Below, piece after piece: positions 11,347 through 52,539 of a stretch of 64,000 nt of DNA. The notes beneath the pieces were generated by a model that saw only the letters and a list, made by a program, of their open reading frames with translations, was not told where the DNA came from and did no database searches. The DNA lies in sequence record PQ356294.1; one strand, 5' to 3'. Within the stretch, counting starts at the first letter, position 1, and the number at the start of each line of letters is the position of its first letter. Origin of the DNA: Escherichia phage Ec_YwIITB1. Position numbers and translations under genes: made by a program.

Positions 11347-12908
11347 ATGACTATCAAAACTAAAGCTGAACTTTTGAACAAATGGAAGCCATTACTGGAA
11401 GGTGAAGGTTTACCGGAAATTGCTAATAGCAAACAAGCGATTATCGCTAAAATCTTTGAAAACCAGGAAAAAGATTTCCAGACAGCTCCAGAGTACAAAG
11501 ACGAAAAAATCGCCCAGGCGTTCGGTTCTTTCTTAACAGAAGCTGAAATCGGTGGTGACCACGGTTACAACGCTACTAACATTGCTGCTGGTCAGACTTC
11601 TGGCGCAGTAACTCAGATTGGCCCAGCTGTTATGGGTATGGTACGTCGTGCTATTCCTAACCTGATTGCTTTCGATATTTGCGGTGTTCAGCCGATGAAT
11701 AGCCCGACTGGCCAGGTATTTGCACTGCGTGCAGTATATGGTAAAGACCCAATCGCTGCTGATGCTAAAGAAGCATTCCACCCAATGTATGGTCCAGATG
11801 CAATGTTCTCTGGTCAGGGTGCTGCTAAGAAATTCGCGCTAGCACACAAACTACTGTAAGTTGGAACCATTTACACCTATTTCTTCCAGGAAACTGGTAC
11901 TGTATATCTGCAAGCTACCTCTAGTTAAAGCAAATTGATACAAGTGCTTCTGACGCAGCTAAATTAGATGCTGAAATTAAGAAACAAATGGAAGCTGGCG
12001 TATTGGTAGAAATCGCTGAAGGTATGGCTACTTCTATCGCTGAACTTCAGGAAGGTTTCAACGGTTCTACCGATAACCCATGGAATGAAATGGGATTCCG
12101 TATCGATAAACAAGTTATCGAAGCTAAATCTCGTCAGCTGAAAGCTGCTTACTCTATCGAATTAGCACAAGACCTCCGCGCTGTTCACGGTATGGATGCT
12201 GATGCTGAACTGTCTGGTATTCTGGCTACCGAAATCATGCTGGAAATCAACCGTGAAGTTGTTGATTGGATTAACTACTCAGCTCAGGTTGGTAAATCTG
12301 GTATGACCCTGACTCCGGGTTCTAAAGCTGGTGTATTTGACTTCCAGGATCCGATTGATATTCGCGGTGCTCGCTGGGCAGGTGAATCCTTTAAAGCTCT
12401 GTTGTTCCAGATTGACAAAGAAGCAGTTGAAATTGCTCGTCAGACCGGTCGTGGTGAAGGTAACTTCATTATCGCTTCCCGTAACGTAGTTAACGTTCTG
12501 GCTTCAGTTGATACTGGCATTTCTTATGCTGCACAGGGTCTGGCTACCGGCTTTAACACTGATACTACCAAGTCAGTATTTGCTGGTGTTCTGGGTGGTA
12601 AATACCGTGTATACATCGACCAGTATGCTAAACAGGATTATTTCACTGTAGGTTATAAAGGTCCGAACGAAATGGATGCTGGTATTTACTACGCTCCATA
12701 TGTAGCTCTGACTCCGCTGCGTGGTTCCGATCCGAAGAACTTCCAACCGGTAATGGGATTCAAAACTCGTTACGGTATCGGTATCAACCCATTTGCAGAA
12801 TCCGCTGCTCAGGCTCCGGCTTCTCGCATCCAAAGCGGTATGCCTTCTATTCTTAATAGCCTTGGTAAAAACGCTTACTTCCGCCGTGTATATGTTAAAG
12901 GTATCTAA
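11347..12908 (+). CDS. 23: major capsid protein gp23; reading frame interrupted between ~11836 and ~11930
   Basis: 170-aa ORF 11347-11859 matches gp23 N-terminus, 306-aa ORF 11988-12908 matches C-terminus; in-frame stops at 11857 and 11926 with three frame changes between. Confidence 0.85.
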
Positions 12909-12923
12909 TCTTTGACGATTTAA

Positions 12924-12939
12924 GGGACCTTCGGGTCCC
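12924..12939 (+). terminator. hairpin after gene 23, followed by T-rich tract
   Basis: GGGACCTTCGGGTCCC. Confidence 0.5.
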
Positions 12940-12956
12940 TTTAGTTGTTTTTATGG

Positions 12957-12964
12957 TATAAATA
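12957..12964 (+). promoter_or_regulatory. late promoter for gene 24
   Basis: TATAAATA 28 nt before ATG 12992. Confidence 0.6.
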
Positions 12965-12991
12965 AATCATATAAACCAAAAGGAAAGCGCA

Positions 12992-15894: not shown

Positions 15895-17324
15895 TTATGG
15901 ATAGGTATAGATGATACCAGTTTCTAAAGCAGTTTTATGAATGATGTATCCATTGCGTGATTCTTGAACATCAACTTCTGGATAGTCTTTCATCATCTTC
16001 TGAAGAGTGTAACGATGCAGGTAGTATTTACTGTCTGGATCTTCAGTTTTCCAATCTTTACCTTCTTCGGTCATTTTTTGGATTTCATCCATAACCCACC
16101 AGCCGCACCAGATATAAGCCGAAGTACGATGTGGAAGAGGATGAACATAAGGCAATTCACCTTCTGGTTCCGGAGCAACTTTATCAGTTACCTGAACTTG
16201 GCCTGTTGCTTTAACTGTTTTACTATCATAGTCGGTTGCTGTAACGACAGCAGTAACTTCAATAGTTTGACTTCCAATAGATGAGGTGTCAACGGTGTAT
16301 ACATTAGTTGACCCTTCTACAGGAGAAGAATCTTTCTTCCATGAATAAGTAATTTGAGCTGCTTCAGGTGCTCCGTGACATTAGCCGTAAATGTAGCCGA
16401 AGCATCTTGCTGAACGTTAATAGAAGGAGGAGTCAATGTAACCTGTGGATTCATTGTCTTCTTATTAACTGTCAATGATACTTCATTAGAAGTAACTTCC
16501 TTTGCATCATAATTTTCAGCCGTTACTTGGGCTACACACTTAACTGTTTTAGCTCCAACTGTGGTAGGAGTATAGTTAAATGTAGTAGTAGTTTCTCCAT
16601 CGACCAGAGAACCGTCAACATACCACTGATACGTAGCAGACGCTCCTGGTGGCTGTGAAGCCAAGGTAGCAGTAAATTGAACTGGGGTTCCAATAACTCC
16701 TGCTGGAGGATTAGCAGGAGTTACGGCTAACGTAGTTGTCTGTGTTTTCTTATTAACAGTCAGTGACACTTCATTAGAAGTAACTTCCTTTGCATCATAA
16801 TCTGTCGCGGTTACTTGAGCTACACACTTAATTGTTTTAACTCCGCTTGCGTCAGGAGTGTAATTGAATGTAGTGCCAGTTGCTTCGCCCACAGGAGAAC
16901 CGTCAACGTGCCATTGATACGTAGCGTTTGCACTTGGTGGCTGTGAAGCTAAGGCAGCGGTAAATTCAATTGGAGTTCCAATCACTCCAGCATCAGGGCT
17001 ACCAGGAGTTACAGCTAAAATAGTTGTTTGTGTCTTATTTTGAACCGTGATAGTTGTCGTAGTTTCTGCTGTTTCAGGTTCAGGTTCAGATTCAGATTCT
17101 GGAACTGTATTTGTTGCAACGACTTTAATAGTCTTTTGACCTGCAGGTCCTTTTAATACATAGCCAAAAGTTGCCGCTTCTCCATCTTGCGGAACATTAT
17201 CTACACTCCAAGCATAGGTAATAGTTCCATCTCCAGTTTCACCACTGGGTGTAGCAGTAAACTGCTTGGTTTCATCAATAACTCCTGTTGGGGTTTTAGG
17301 AGTTATATCAACTGTAAAAGTCAT
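15895..17324 (-). CDS. hoc: Hoc outer capsid protein with extra tandem Ig-like domain; frameshifted near 16371-16375
   Basis: 335-aa ORF 16317-17324 (starts MTFTVDITPKT) plus 86-aa ORF 15895-16155 matching the Hoc C-terminus (ends GIIYTYP); alternate frame between them reads the expected Hoc sequence. Confidence 0.85.
16464..17039 (-). repeat. tandem in-frame duplication (~288 bp unit) encoding two Ig-like domains within hoc
   Basis: Two consecutive ~96-aa blocks (ILAVTPGSPDAGVIGTPIEFTA... and TLAVTPANPPAGVIGTPVQFTA...) with matching DNA repeat; boundaries approximate. Confidence 0.7.
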
Positions 17325-18014: not shown

Positions 18015-18027
18015 AATATTTCCTCAG

Positions 18028-18035
18028 TATAAATA
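18028..18035 (+). promoter_or_regulatory. late promoter for uvsW
   Basis: TATAAATA 30 nt before ATG 18065. Confidence 0.6.
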
Positions 18036-18064
18036 TAGATATATTTATTACATGGTATTTAGAC

Positions 18065-28501: not shown

Positions 28502-28554
28502 CCTCATGTTATGTCAGTAAGACTATTATAACACAGCACGAGGGACTTGTAAAC
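28502..28554 (-). promoter_or_regulatory. sigma70-like early promoter plus leader and RBS (cassette copy A)
   Basis: Reverse strand TTTACA, 17-nt spacer, TATAAT, then GAGG and ATG 28493; 50 of 53 nt identical to 44191-44243. Confidence 0.55.
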
Positions 28555-30611
28555 TACATCTTGAACTTTTTAGACATTCCGTTGATGTTAACCAAAGAAG
28601 CCAAGATTTGAGAAACTTCGTTTTCCTCTTCTTTTGATTCTTCTACAAGGAATTGATTAAACCCAGCCATTGGACGAACTTCACCAGTTTCCATTAGATG
28701 ATCGCCATCATATACCGATTCTTCTAATTGTTCAGAAGGAGGAACGATTGTGCCTTCAATTAGATACTTGTTATAAGCAGTTTCTTTCATCATGTACGTG
28801 CTCACTTTATTAATCTTCAGCAAAATTCCACGTGGTAGAATAACTTCAGCTTCTGATGGAAATCCTGATAAATGACCTGGAACGATAACTTTGATTCGCT
28901 CAGCCCCTTTAATTACCATACCTACGCTAGCTTCAGCATCTTCATTAGCATATGCAGAATGACTACCCATATGCATTAAATCTTCAGCATCAACAGAACC
29001 TTCTCCTTCACCAGAAAATACTGCGCCGGAATCATCTAGAGCCATATAGTTTTTACCATGCTCACCGAAGATATTTGGTTTAAGCGATGTTGATACGAAG
29101 TTCTTGAAATAGAACATTTTATTTTCAATATTATGGCGTAAAGTTTTAAAAGTAACTTCTTGTCCACGATAAAGCGTAATTCCCGGAGGAAGAACTGAAC
29201 CTTTGGCAAAGGCAGAATCCAGCGTCTCGATGTGTTTAATAGCTCGTTCCATATATTCTTCACGGGTAGAATCTGGTTTACCCAAGAGGAACGAGTTCAT
29301 TTCAACATATGAATCTGCACAATAATCTTCAATTACAACAGACTCAGCCTGAGTTAATCCTTTTGGAGTTACTTCAGTGCTTGCGTATTCATATGCCTGA
29401 GCAGCAGATTCATTAATCAATTTATAAATGCCATTCATGACAAATTGAATAATAGCTACCTTTTCGTCTGGCGTAGCTTTAGAACCTTTAACTAAATCAT
29501 TGATAATTTTCTTAATAACATCAAAGCTATTAGAAATATTAATGTCAGCGAGATCGCTCAAAATTTTATCGGTTTTATAATCAAAAAATTCTTTATTCTT
29601 TAAATATTCTTGAGAACCTTGATATGTTATATCGCTCTGCAGTCTGATAGACGGATCGCGTAAACGTGCATGGGCCAATGCAATATGATTTCGGAGGCTT
29701 TCTAGTTCATAATCGTTAGATTTAAAACGAGAAGCACTTCTCATACCACCGATAGCTCCTTTGCTGAAGTTGGAACCAATCTGAATAACGCCAGAGTTCA
29801 TTGGTCCTTCTGCTTTATATACCGGAACTTTAGATTCAAACTCTTGATATTTCTTGGCGGCGAAGCTATCGCCCTGAAGTGAAGCATCGACAGTAGAATA
29901 TTGAGCTTGCGCTGCCAATCGACGACTAATTTTAGTTTTCTGAATAACAGCTTGATCCGTGCGCTTATCATTTTCTAAAGCAATAGAAGCAGCAACAGCA
30001 ACAGCTTTAGGAACAGCATTACCTGTTTTAACATCTACATAAACATCACCAACCTTTGATTCAACTTTTGTGAATAACTCAGTTGAAATAGGAGGTACAC
30101 CTGGAATGTCTTCTAAATTGGCATTTTTACGGTAAACCATAATATATGCATACTTTTTATCATAATCCCAGATTTCCTTTAAAAGAACATATCGACCTGC
30201 TCCTTTAGTACGTACTAAACGGTCAGCAATAACTTGCATCTGACGAGCTGCGCCATTTGTTTTACTTTTTAGTACGCGGAATAGGCATGCATCAATTTTA
30301 TACTGTTTCATTGTTTGAAGAGCAGTATCAAAAACCGCATTAATGACACCAATTGGATTTCCACCCAAGTTTTTAAGTTTAACTAATGATAGTTTCTCAT
30401 TAACACCTATCATTACGATATGCATCATTTTATCGCCTGGCTTAACGTTTTTATTTGTATCACCGCCAGAGGTGTATGTACAAAATCTAAATCCAGGAAG
30501 CACACTTTCTTCGCCGGCTTGAATAGCAAAAATTTGAGGTATTTTATGCTTAGGATTTAAGTTAACAACCGGCGCCGAAGCGCCGTCAAATAATTCTGTA
30601 ATAAGTTCCAT
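28554..30611 (-). CDS. Alt-like ADP-ribosyltransferase, second paralog
   Basis: 685-aa ORF; N-terminal ~230 aa closely similar to the adjacent Alt; ART-like motifs YRGQ, FVSTSL, EAEVILPRG. Confidence 0.8.
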   Translation of the reverse strand: MELITELFDGASAPVVNLNPKHKIPQIFAIQAGEESVLPGFRFCTYTSGGDTNKNVKPGDKMMHIVMIGVNEKLSLVKLKNLGGNPIGVINAVFDTALQTMKQYKIDACLFRVLKSKTNGAARQMQVIADRLVRTKGAGRYVLLKEIWDYDKKYAYIMVYRKNANLEDIPGVPPISTELFTKVESKVGDVYVDVKTGNAVPKAVAVAASIALENDKRTDQAVIQKTKISRRLAAQAQYSTVDASLQGDSFAAKKYQEFESKVPVYKAEGPMNSGVIQIGSNFSKGAIGGMRSASRFKSNDYELESLRNHIALAHARLRDPSIRLQSDITYQGSQEYLKNKEFFDYKTDKILSDLADINISNSFDVIKKIINDLVKGSKATPDEKVAIIQFVMNGIYKLINESAAQAYEYASTEVTPKGLTQAESVVIEDYCADSYVEMNSFLLGKPDSTREEYMERAIKHIETLDSAFAKGSVLPPGITLYRGQEVTFKTLRHNIENKMFYFKNFVSTSLKPNIFGEHGKNYMALDDSGAVFSGEGEGSVDAEDLMHMGSHSAYANEDAEASVGMVIKGAERIKVIVPGHLSGFPSEAEVILPRGILLKINKVSTYMMKETAYNKYLIEGTIVPPSEQLEESVYDGDHLMETGEVRPMAGFNQFLVEESKEEENEVSQILASLVNINGMSKKFKM

Positions 30612-30614
30612 GAT

Positions 30615-32669
30615 TTATCCTTGAACGAACTTGTAAGGCATGTTTGTAATATCTATGCAAGACGCAATAATTCCAAGAGATGATTCTACTTTTTGTTTAA
30701 CATTTGATGAAACAAATGATGCAAAGTCAACTCTGTCTTCTATTTCAATATCATCTGTCATTGCAACTACTTCACCAGTTTCCATTAGACGATCACCGTC
30801 ATAAATTACTGATTCGGTGAGTTCTTCGGTAGTCATAACTTCAGCTTGAATAAGCTTGTTGTTAGTTTTAGCTGTTCCATCATTGTAAGATGCGTCGGTT
30901 ATTTTATTGACTTTGACCATCAATCCACGCGGCAAAATGACTTCCATTTCATTTGAAGGCGCTAAACTTCCACCTGGTAAAACAACGTTGACTTTATCAG
31001 CCCCAGTAATAACCCATCCAATTCCAACTAAATTATCGCTAGAATTAACAAGTCCTTCATCGTTTTTATCGATAGAAATGTTTAGACGCTTTTCGTCTGG
31101 TAAAACACCCACAGCTGAATCAGTCATCCAAGTACCAAAAATGTTTGGATATAATGATGTTGATACAAAATTTCTAAAATAAAAAACTCGATTTTTTACC
31201 AATGCTTCATATATTGAAGGAGCAGTCATGCTTTGAGCACGATAAACTGTAATGCCTTCTGGTATACGGTCACCATTTTCAAAGGCTGAATCTAAATTAT
31301 TTATCGCAGATTCAATTTCTTTTTCACTCATTACCTCATATCGTTCTGGATTATATAATCCCAAAAGAGCATTATTCATGTCTACATATCCTGAACCTAC
31401 GTATTCACGAATTCCGCGTTTTTGTGCCGGTGTGTATTTAGATGAATCTTTATTTTCGACTATAGAATGCAATGACCATCCAACGGTAAGAGCATATCCA
31501 CGTAATTCTCTTCGAATAATCTTTGTTTTTATTGCATTCCAAGAATTTTGCACTAACTCATTCGCAGCATCTTGATTTAAATGCGAATGCTTGTTAATAT
31601 TTCTTTCTAACCAAGCACCTTTATATTTTTCTAAAGTATCATCAACTATAGAAGCAATAGTTTCTAAAGTTTTTATTGAAGTAATAGATTCTTTTCGTAA
31701 TCTTTCTAAAGCTTTATTTTTTATTTCTGCATTAACATCAGATTCTTTATCTTCAGGAATTATAGAAGCTTCTCTGAATGCCATTCCAGCTGTAACACTA
31801 TTAAGAGCATTCTCTAATGCAAATCCTGAAGTAGAAATAACAGTTAATTCGTTAGCATCAGAAATTAAAGGCGCGTCAGCGGGTTTATTTAATTCTGCTG
31901 CTGAAGCCTCAAATTTTTGAAACATTGGTGTTTCAAATCTAGAAGATTCTAATGATTGACTTTGTGCAATTGCTCTACGGGAAATTTTAACTTTAACGAT
32001 TACAGCTTGGTCAGAACGTTTATCGTTTTCTTGCGCAATAGATGCAGCAATGGCCTCATTTTTAGTTACTTGAGCTCCGGTATCTTTATTGATATAAACA
32101 TCGCCGACTTTCGATTCAACTTTAGTAAAGAGCTCTGTACTAATTTCAGGAACTCCTGGAATGTCTTCTAATGATACATTTTTGCGATGTATAAGAATAT
32201 ATGCATACTTTTTATCGTAATCCCAGAGTTCCTTAAGAAGGACGTATCTGCCACCTGAACGACTACGGATAAGTCTATCAGCAATAAGTTGAATTTGACG
32301 AGCTTGACCAGCAGTTTTAGACTTAAGAATACGGAGCATGCAGGCATCAATTTTATACTGACGCATCGTTTGCATTGCAACAGTAAAAACTGAATTGATA
32401 TAATTAATTGGGCTTGGACCGAGACCTTTTAATTTAGCGATTGAACCTTTAGCAGTTAATGTAAAAGGAACAATATGCATCATTTTATCGCCCATCTTTA
32501 AATCGCGATTAGTATCACCTCCAGATGTGTAGGTACATAAACGAAAACCTGGTTGTTCAATTGCGTCATCAACATGAACTGAAAAAATTTGCGGTATTTT
32601 CTTCTTTGGATTTAAGTTTGTAATCGGAAGAGTAGTATCTTCGTCAAATAATTCTGTAATGAGTTCCAT
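30615..32669 (-). CDS. alt: Alt ADP-ribosyltransferase (virion-packaged)
   Basis: ORF open from 32672 (MMELITE); second ATG 32669 better spaced from GAGGA; motifs YRAQ, FVSTSL, EMEVILPRG; late promoter upstream. Confidence 0.85.
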   Translation of the reverse strand: MELITELFDEDTTLPITNLNPKKKIPQIFSVHVDDAIEQPGFRLCTYTSGGDTNRDLKMGDKMMHIVPFTLTAKGSIAKLKGLGPSPINYINSVFTVAMQTMRQYKIDACMLRILKSKTAGQARQIQLIADRLIRSRSGGRYVLLKELWDYDKKYAYILIHRKNVSLEDIPGVPEISTELFTKVESKVGDVYINKDTGAQVTKNEAIAASIAQENDKRSDQAVIVKVKISRRAIAQSQSLESSRFETPMFQKFEASAAELNKPADAPLISDANELTVISTSGFALENALNSVTAGMAFREASIIPEDKESDVNAEIKNKALERLRKESITSIKTLETIASIVDDTLEKYKGAWLERNINKHSHLNQDAANELVQNSWNAIKTKIIRRELRGYALTVGWSLHSIVENKDSSKYTPAQKRGIREYVGSGYVDMNNALLGLYNPERYEVMSEKEIESAINNLDSAFENGDRIPEGITVYRAQSMTAPSIYEALVKNRVFYFRNFVSTSLYPNIFGTWMTDSAVGVLPDEKRLNISIDKNDEGLVNSSDNLVGIGWVITGADKVNVVLPGGSLAPSNEMEVILPRGLMVKVNKITDASYNDGTAKTNNKLIQAEVMTTEELTESVIYDGDRLMETGEVVAMTDDIEIEDRVDFASFVSSNVKQKVESSLGIIASCIDITNMPYKFVQG

Positions 32670-32692
32670 CATATCCTCTCTAGTGTTTATTC

Positions 32693-45861: not shown

Positions 45862-47036
45862 TTAAAAATATTTTTTAAAACTCATCATAACTTTATCATC
45901 AACATCATTATCAATCTGTGCTACAAGATAAGATGACAGTTCTACTTCTTGCGGCGCGGATTGAACATTATCAGAATTAAGATATTCACGAATCCAAGGA
46001 TACGGGTGTTTAACCGGAGCATCGGTAATTGGGCATGGAAGACCACACTGTTTCATACGAGATACAGTTAAGTAATCAATAAAGTTCCACATGCTATTTG
46101 TATTTAATCCAGGAACATCGCCATCTTTAAATAAATGAACTGCCCAGTCTTTTTCTTGGCGGTTAACTTCCATGAAAATATCAACTGCTTCTTGTTCACA
46201 CTCTTGGGCGATTTTAACCCATTCATCACCATCAGTGCCAAGTTGAAGTTGACGAATAATATATTGGGTGCCTTTAAGGTGAAGCTGTTCATCACGTGCA
46301 ATGAACTTCATAATCTTGGCATTACCTTCCATGATTTCCATGTTTTTATGGAAGTTAAAGGTACATGCGAAAGATACGTAAAAACGAATAGCTTCCAGTG
46401 CGTTGATTACATGCAGACAAAGGTAAAGAGAACGCATTAGTTCACGTTTCCAATACATTTCATGCTCTATGGCATCTTTAATATCATCTTCGTCTGCGTT
46501 AATTTCTTTTTGGTACTCAATATCAGCTTTAGCATTCTGCCACGAGTTTTCTCAATAACATCATCATAGTAACGACCAATAGATTCAGCACGTTTCATGA
46601 TAGCTTTATCTAATACAATCTCATCAAATACTTTTGACGGATCAGTATAAAGATTCCGCATGATATGAGTGTATGAACGACTGTGAATAGTTTCGCTAAA
46701 AGTCCATGTAGCAACCCATGTATCAAGGCTTGGGTCTGAAATTAACGACATAAGTACAGCAGACGGTGCACGACCCTGAATGCTATCCAAAAGTGATTGA
46801 TACTTCAGGTTATTAGTAAAAATATCTTGCTGATACTGAGGAAGCTTGTTAAATTGTGCAGCATCCATCATCAAGTTTACTTCTTCAGGACGCCAGAAAA
46901 ATGACAACTGCTTTTCGGTTAAATCTTCAAAAACTTTATGGCGTTGAATATCATAACGCGCAATACCAAGACCTGAACCGAAGAACATAGGTTCTTTTAA
47001 AACATCAACTGGATTTGTATTAAAAACTGTGCTCAT
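45862..47036 (-). CDS. nrdB: ribonucleotide reductase small subunit NrdB, intron-less; frameshifted near 46539-46546
   Basis: 189-aa ORF 46467-47036 (N-terminus) and 198-aa ORF 45862-46458 (C-terminus) in different frames, 8 nt apart; alternate frame reads through the junction. Confidence 0.85.
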
Positions 47037-50770: not shown

Positions 50771-51795
<1,025 letters not shown>

Positions 51796-52102: not shown

Positions 52103-52488
52103 CTACTTTTTGAAAGTTTTTCGCAAAAGTTCAATGATTTCATCTACATTGTTTTCATCAACAATGCAGTGAATTTTTGTTACGCCAGAAACCTTGTCTT
52201 CGACTTCATCTTCTTCGGAAGTCGGTTCTTTATACTCACGAAAACAATGAAATTCGTCTTCGCAAATTTCTAAAAGTCTATCTTTGAGGTAAAAATGCTT
52301 TCCGTTAGCGCACAAATGATTTCGGTTACATAATCAAAGCCATCTAAATTTGATATTGATTTAACTTCAAACCAACCACCATTTTCTTGAATGATGCCGA
52401 CCATATTAGTATTTGATGAACTAATATCAATGAAAGATTTAATACGATGTATCAATAAGTCTTGGAACAAGTTCATACTTTTTGCCAA
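52103..52488 (-). CDS. hypothetical protein (frd.3 position), frameshifted near 52302-52314
   Basis: 72-aa and 70-aa ORFs overlapping in different frames; together one ~128-aa product. Confidence 0.55.
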
Positions 52489-52539
52489 TATACATTACGT
52501 TTTCCTCATTTTAACGGGGCTGTAATAGCCCTTTGATAA

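Follow-up and report, generated by a model that had tools for sequence, protein, structure and literature searches.

Frame breaks in gene 23 of a Tequatrovirus sequence most likely reflect the merging of divergent alleles during assembly or consensus building

Gene 23, encoding the major capsid protein gp23, is broken in the window, that is, in the complete 64-kb stretch of DNA from Escherichia phage Ec_YwIITB1 that was analysed here. The disruption most likely arose through an error of assembly or consensus building and is not a real biological feature. Specifically, as judged from sequence comparisons, the gp23 breaks would, with a probability of roughly 0.8, represent a consensus or assembly artefact in which divergent alleles were merged, rather than a property of the phage. 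Several observations lead to this reading, namely, the interleaving of alleles, the gains and losses of bases at points where one allele gives way to another, the restriction of the breaks to polymorphic patches, the involvement of five unrelated genes and the lack of decay, all of which argue for allele mixing accompanied by mishandled alignment. The true phage would, as such, carry an ordinary single gene 23 of 1566 nt that encodes a capsid protein of 521 residues.

Structure of gene 23 in the window

The window corresponds to a Tequatrovirus segment comprising gene 14, head genes, hoc, uvsW, baseplate hub genes, alt, the DNA ligase gene, the nrd/td/frd cluster, gene 32 and tail-fibre genes 34-36. 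The closest phage-collection records are 96-98% identical to this segment, with the best record showing 97.6% identity over the first 25 kb and 96.1% identity over positions 37000-61999. Gene 23, found on the + strand at 11347-12908, is flanked by the scaffold gene 22 and the vertex gene 24, with both homology and this position assigning it to the gp23 family. In 21 of the 22 distinct full-length relatives aligned, gene 23 is 1566 nt long, the remaining one being of 1569 nt, while the top-ranked phage-collection records also align over 1566 nt, as compared to the 1562 nt of the window copy. The 1566-nt version served as the reference representing the relatives, and all register offsets were counted against that length.

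Rather than a single uninterrupted frame of ~521 codons, gene 23 of the window is divided into an ORF of 170 aa and another of 306 aa, which lie in different frames, with the frame shifting three times within 11838-11929. The initial annotation considered these ORFs, at 11347-11859 and 11988-12908, to encode the two ends of gp23. This was borne out by their translations and by matches to the Pfam Gp23 family (PF07068), involving profile positions 1-62 in the case of the N-terminal ORF (E = 8e-19) and profile positions 109-375 in the case of the C-terminal ORF (E = 2e-97). Likewise present were the two in-frame TAA stops that had been reported, at 11857-11859 and 11926-11928, as were the three protein-like readings described between the ORFs, namely, ASTQTTV in the +2 frame at ~11838-11858, VGTIYTYFFQETGTVYLQATSS in the start frame at 11860-11925 and LKQIDTSASDAAKLDAEIKKQMEAG in the +2 frame from 11925. 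As the pieces show exact matches of 17, 10, 36, 13 and 50 nt to known gp23 alleles, these readings are real and not the product of chance.

The earlier proposal that each frame change is consistent with a 1-nt length difference did not, however, hold. Nucleotide-level alignment with gene 23 of relatives revealed the frame breaks but not as three 1-nt changes, instead uncovering four changes of register, corresponding to a loss of 10 nt followed by gains of 4, 1 and 1 nt, for a net change of -4 nt. Thus, while the order in which the initial annotation had ranked the options, i.e., sequence error, then a defective genome and finally recoding, is retained here, the anatomy it offered was oversimplified, given the four register jumps at allele switches in two hypervariable patches. 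Nor had it described the damage to other genes in the window, since hoc, nrdB, frd and frd.2 are broken as well.

Considered piece by piece, the N-terminal ORF (11347-11859, + strand; 170 codons and a TAA stop) reads as normal gp23 to about codon 164, after which it reads ALAHKLL and then stops while crossing the scrambled first hypervariable patch (HV1). When compared to residues 1-195 of ZCEC15 gp23 by tblastn, the N-terminal frame showed 94% identity, and the N-terminal piece matched solved T4 gp23 structures over residues 1-164. Within HV1, positions 11838-11854 (+ strand; gct agc aca caa act ac, coding for ASTQT) comprise a T4-type fragment whose register is displaced by 10 nt relative to the upstream gene. 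This fragment matches one known allele (L012) exactly over 17 nt at offset +10. In T4-type alleles, it is preceded by 10 nt that are absent from the window, with the gap being placed at 11838. At the following T4-type/PYps32T-type junction (11855-11859, + strand), 4 surplus nt move the register from +10 to +6 and create the TAA stop at 11857-11859. The junction holds the valine codons of both alleles, reading gta, then a, then gtt.

Between the two patches lies a conserved block (11858-11918, + strand), where the start frame is regained. This block encodes VGTIYTYFFQETGTVYLQAT and is fully intact, containing stretches of 10 and 36 nt that match allele L001 exactly at offset +6. The second hypervariable patch (HV2), at 11919-11928 on the + strand (c tct a gtt aaa g), is again scrambled. 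Comparison with alleles L001 and L011 revealed two allele families to be interleaved here, together with two single surplus bases, creating the TAA stop at 11926-11928 in a stretch where the +2 frame is itself closed by a TAG at 11922-11924. The C-terminal part of the gene (11929-12908, + strand) is intact in the +2 frame up to the normal stop, with the 306-aa ORF at 11988-12908 simply being what is obtained when an ATG is sought mechanically. This part is 98.8% identical to residues 197-521 of ZCEC15 gp23 in one frame (tblastn). The sequence is, therefore, that of the same gene in the same place as gene 23 of T4 and other tequatroviruses (PF07068; structures 5VF3, 6UZC and 7VS5), being open and 94-99% identical to the relatives outside the breaks. 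Yet, whereas gene 23 of the Tequatrovirus relatives is uninterrupted over 1566 nt, the window copy of 1562 nt contains four register jumps and two in-frame stops, all in the two hypervariable patches.

Allele types and register jumps in the hypervariable patches

The allele types were defined using a set of 25 distinct alleles of the variable segment, taken from database records and from contigs encoding identical neighbour proteins, and a register map was drawn by tiling the window with the longest exact matches to these known alleles. The variable segment is 182 nt long in 24 of the 25 alleles and 176 nt long in the other, as compared to 178 nt in the window. The register offset was 0 up to position 11837, +10 at 11838-11854, +6 at 11858-11918, +5 at 11923-11928 and +4 from 11929 to the end of the gene. 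Each jump sits at a switch among T4-type, PYps32T-type and ZCEC15-type alleles, all within 100 nt. The region containing HV2 reads gct ac/c tct/a gtt aa/a/g caa att gat ac/a agt gct/tct gac, interleaving PYps32T-type and ZCEC15-type allele pieces, while the tat codon that follows the first patch is ZCEC15-type. In its variable region, gp23 of the window is pieced together on a fine scale from at least three known allele families.

When diversity was considered along gene 23 of the 22 distinct full-length relatives, the top 5% of columns formed exactly two runs, corresponding to alignment columns 496-536 and 580-617. Every indel in gp23 of the window lies inside one of these runs or directly at its border, with local diversity at these sites ranking between the 95th and 98th percentiles. 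Across the window as a whole, the indels fall between the 88th and 98th percentiles.

Among the close Tequatrovirus relatives (L001-L031), nearly all gp23 variation is found in two short patches of fixed length, at gene positions ~490-535 and ~575-615 (window positions 11837-11882 and 11922-11962), where at least three allele families recombine as in-register modules. According to the published structure of the T4 head, the insertion domain of gp23 protrudes from the capsid surface (PMC9546572). It is in this domain that the two variable patches would probably lie. That gp23 variation is concentrated in two short patches exchanged as in-register modules is a side result that may interest capsid biologists.

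Natural gp23 mosaics were seen, for example, in relatives L026, L030 and L031, each combining the first patch of one family with the second patch of another, in register. Like these, the window joins sequence of several allele families. Unlike the natural mosaics, which switch once, in the conserved 45-nt block, the window changes allele family every 5-20 nt within the patches, with register being lost.

Broken genes elsewhere in the window

The intactness of other genes in the window was addressed by tblastn, using 88 annotated proteins of two close relatives as queries. Whereas 83 of the 88 genes were intact, five were frame-broken, namely, gp23, hoc, nrdB, frd and frd.2. All five breaks fall in locally polymorphic stretches, those in gp23, hoc, nrdB and frd.2 coinciding with a switch of allele type. 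No further decay was seen in any of the broken genes.

In hoc (15898-17324, - strand), encoding the decorative outer capsid protein, the break at ~16362-16379 reflects 1 missing nt at ~16375, at a switch between two allele types, with the last 159 codons remaining fully open in the shifted frame. If repaired, hoc would comprise ~475 codons and belong to a 472-aa length class, Hoc in the relatives varying from 311 to 664 aa. In nrdB (45862-47036, - strand), encoding the small subunit of ribonucleotide reductase, a clean 4-nt deletion at ~46543 (break at ~46533-46550) leaves ORFs of 189 and 198 aa, with the sequence upstream of the break resembling one allele family and that downstream resembling another. 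The dihydrofolate reductase gene frd (50973-51550, - strand) also presents a clean 4-nt deletion, at ~51224 (break at ~51217-51232), relative to its nearest allele (L048) and in a locally variable stretch; here, the loss lies inside one allele type, with no obvious allele switch. In terms of local diversity, the nrdB and frd deletions rank between the 88th and 92nd percentiles.

The fifth gene, frd.2 (52103-52495, - strand), is a chimera of two allele families, with junctions at 52436-52459 and 52297-52320. The first 48 nt are of one family, which is replaced by the other after an out-of-register junction of 13 nt, before the first family returns, now with 2 extra nt. The 13-nt junction contains the same codons in tandem, in the versions of both alleles. 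This structure was found in no phage-collection record, and an exact scan of IMG/VR, where control scans detected hardly any Tequatrovirus, offered no match to the junction. Out-of-register junctions at allele switches, as expected of an allele chimera, were thus seen at several polymorphic loci, namely, in gp23, hoc, nrdB and frd.2.

That hoc, nrdB, frd and frd.2 are broken in the same window as gp23 points to a genome-wide assembly or consensus problem, rather than to one specific to the capsid gene. Where T4-like phages have strongly divergent alleles, bases of more than one allele would have been merged into one consensus, the sites affected being the two hypervariable, probably surface-exposed patches of gp23 and the polymorphic stretches of hoc, nrdB, frd and frd.2. 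With divergent alleles being aligned with staggered gaps, columns kept from both would add bases and columns that were dropped would remove them, yielding an out-of-register, fine-scale patchwork. As for the pipeline step that produced the breaks, the source may have been a mixed phage stock or sample, reference- or homology-guided polishing or chimeric amplification.

Two observations count against such an artefact. The first is that 83 of the 88 genes are clean and that the window is otherwise a normal, 96-98% identical relative of known phages, such that the error process would have to be highly local. The second is the clean 4-nt loss in frd, within one allele type.

Random platform noise, involving miscalls at homopolymers or at modified bases in DNA containing glucosylated hydroxymethylcytosine, would call for no allele mixing. 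The DNA of T-even phages is indeed heavily modified, and single-base indels are present, with one base being lost in hoc and one base being gained twice in HV2. At the same time, homopolymer noise was rejected for gp23, as the longest run in 11827-11945 is 3 nt, while indels of 10, 4, 4, 4 and 13 nt are not typical of random noise. Moreover, all errors are confined to hypervariable patches, and when the first 16.7 kb of the window, the stretch around gene 23, were compared to the nearest relative, the only coding indel outside gp23 was that in hoc. Noise of this sort is accordingly considered very unlikely as the cause of the breaks.

A different possibility is that the sequence is accurate and that it belongs to a non-viable, dead-end recombinant, generated in vivo or by PCR template switching between co-infecting T4-like phages, with imprecise microhomology joins in divergent patches having broken the genes. 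Such a recombinant would have been captured from a mixed population or metagenome, where it was perhaps complemented by a helper phage. Breaks at allele switches, as seen in gp23, hoc, nrdB and frd.2, are also expected from template switching, and T4 genetics has established four of the five broken genes, i.e., hoc, nrdB, frd and frd.2, as non-essential. In this scenario, the lack of decay would mean that the recombination events were very recent. Gene 23 is, however, essential in T4-like phages, and a genome with four imprecise events in 100 nt and four other broken genes would need to dominate the sample. In addition, natural recombinants between the same gp23 patches (L026 and L031) stay in register, and no second example was found in any collection searched. 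A real recombinant is, as such, regarded as unlikely, although less so than noise, with the merging of alleles in the consensus remaining the preferred reading.

Gene 23 is the marker by which T4-like phages are routinely studied, with the variable region being included in the segment that widely used g23 primers amplify. Once deposited in a database, a scrambled gene 23 allele can lead phylogeny, annotation and gene calling astray. Frame breaks that are limited to hypervariable patches, that occur at allele switches and in several genes and that are not accompanied by decay serve as a warning sign, suggesting a mixed stock or a problem with consensus or polishing. The sequence of the window is, therefore, due for re-examination before being used.

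Recoding and the search for independent copies

Were the sequence correct and the phage viable, the capsid would have to be built either from full-length gp23 generated by programmed recoding, with three non-canonical frame changes in 100 nt (-1 near 11838, +1 near 11858 and -1 or +2 at 11923-11928), or from a gp23 made of two polypeptides (residues 1-170 and the 306-aa C-terminal ORF) and lacking part of the surface insertion domain. It is true that each sub-segment still codes for gp23-like sequence in some frame and that T4 gene 60 relies on translational bypassing. Still, no X XXY YYZ heptamer was found when 11826-11860 and 11919-11930 were read directly. At the last shift, where the frames overlap by about one codon, between the TAG at 11922-11924 and the TAA at 11926-11928, no re-pairing is possible. 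Nor was a stable RNA structure predicted, the minimum free energy of -32.6 kcal/mol comparing with a mean of -34.0 for shuffled sequences (z = +0.36). With neither a slippery heptamer nor a stable downstream structure, a programmed -1 frameshift site was rejected. The window contains no tRNA genes and hence no suppressor tRNA, and no Rfam element, introns included, was matched.

Gene 60-type bypassing was likewise dismissed, as there is no coding gap downstream of the first TAA, where the conserved gp23 block VGTIYTYFFQETGTVYLQA is encoded in frame. The window resembles bypassing in T4 gene 60, as well as the -1 frameshifting of dnaX and of the G/GT tail chaperone, in that interrupted frames of a phage gene would still give one protein. 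Unlike in these systems, matched take-off and landing codons are lacking, as are a slippery heptamer, a stimulatory structure and conservation of the interruption among the relatives. As to the two-piece version, a split protein would drop the conserved block GTIYTxFFQxTGTVYLQA, yet this block is kept perfectly intact, and neither a GGAG-type ribosome-binding site nor a late promoter was found upstream of 11988.

The relatives, moreover, have no need of recoding, since a single gp23 ORF of 521 or 522 aa was found in every relative fetched. The same was true of all 20 contigs in which the encoded gp22 or gp24 is identical to that of the window, these contigs having come from isolates, metagenomes and read-archive assemblies. 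The window allele was absent from all 1068 phage records in which gene 23 was matched, with the best identity being 86% over a 161-nt segment, such that programmed recoding was also rejected on the grounds that the interruption is not conserved. Literature searches yielded no description of a viable T4-like phage in which gene 23 is frameshifted. Recoding would, in sum, need three unprecedented events for which signals are lacking, while any mechanism specific to the capsid gene would leave the four other broken genes unexplained. The existence of a viable phage that makes its capsid in either manner is thus extremely improbable, in both forms considered, and an error of assembly or consensus is still favoured.

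Other sources of interruption were considered as well. Contingency loci, in which homopolymer tracts of at least 6 nt give rise to reversible frameshifts, have been described in T2 and T4 (bioRxiv 10.1101/2025.10.21.683753). These also involve frameshifts in T-even genes, but gp23 of the window contains no repeat tract, its indels being of 10, 4, 1 and 1 nt; with a longest homopolymer of 3 nt in 11827-11945, a contingency locus was rejected. The insertion of an intron, an intein or a homing endonuclease gene was rejected too, since the homologues exceed the gene by 4 nt in length and no Rfam intron was matched.

Searches for independent copies of the window sequence returned no match in complete E. 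coli genomes, and no exact protein copies of the N-terminal gp23 fragment, gp34 or gp29 were on record. The HV1 and HV2 junctions, with variable gaps being allowed, were found in none of IMG/VR, JGI metagenomes or GTDB genomes. These negative scans carry little weight, however, because IMG/VR is almost devoid of Tequatrovirus, as reflected in control scans, where a 29-mer of a known allele gave 0 matches and a conserved 36-mer matched 2 contigs only.

Comparison with the relatives also revealed differences in gene content. In some relatives (L024-L026), genes 23 and 24 are separated by a gene for a GIY-YIG (Seg-like) homing endonuclease that is absent at the corresponding position of the window (12909-12991). 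In ZCEC15, a homing endonuclease gene is annotated between inh and uvsW (compare 29774-30391 of L011) and is absent at 18015-18064 of the window, while two other relatives (L016 and L018) contain a SegE-like ORF just downstream of inh that the window lacks. Finally, the window contains two tandem alt-like (ADP-ribosyltransferase) paralogues of 685 aa each, at 28554-30611 and 30615-32672 on the - strand, the second of which includes an in-frame stretch at ~30970-31215 that is strongly divergent from ZCEC15.
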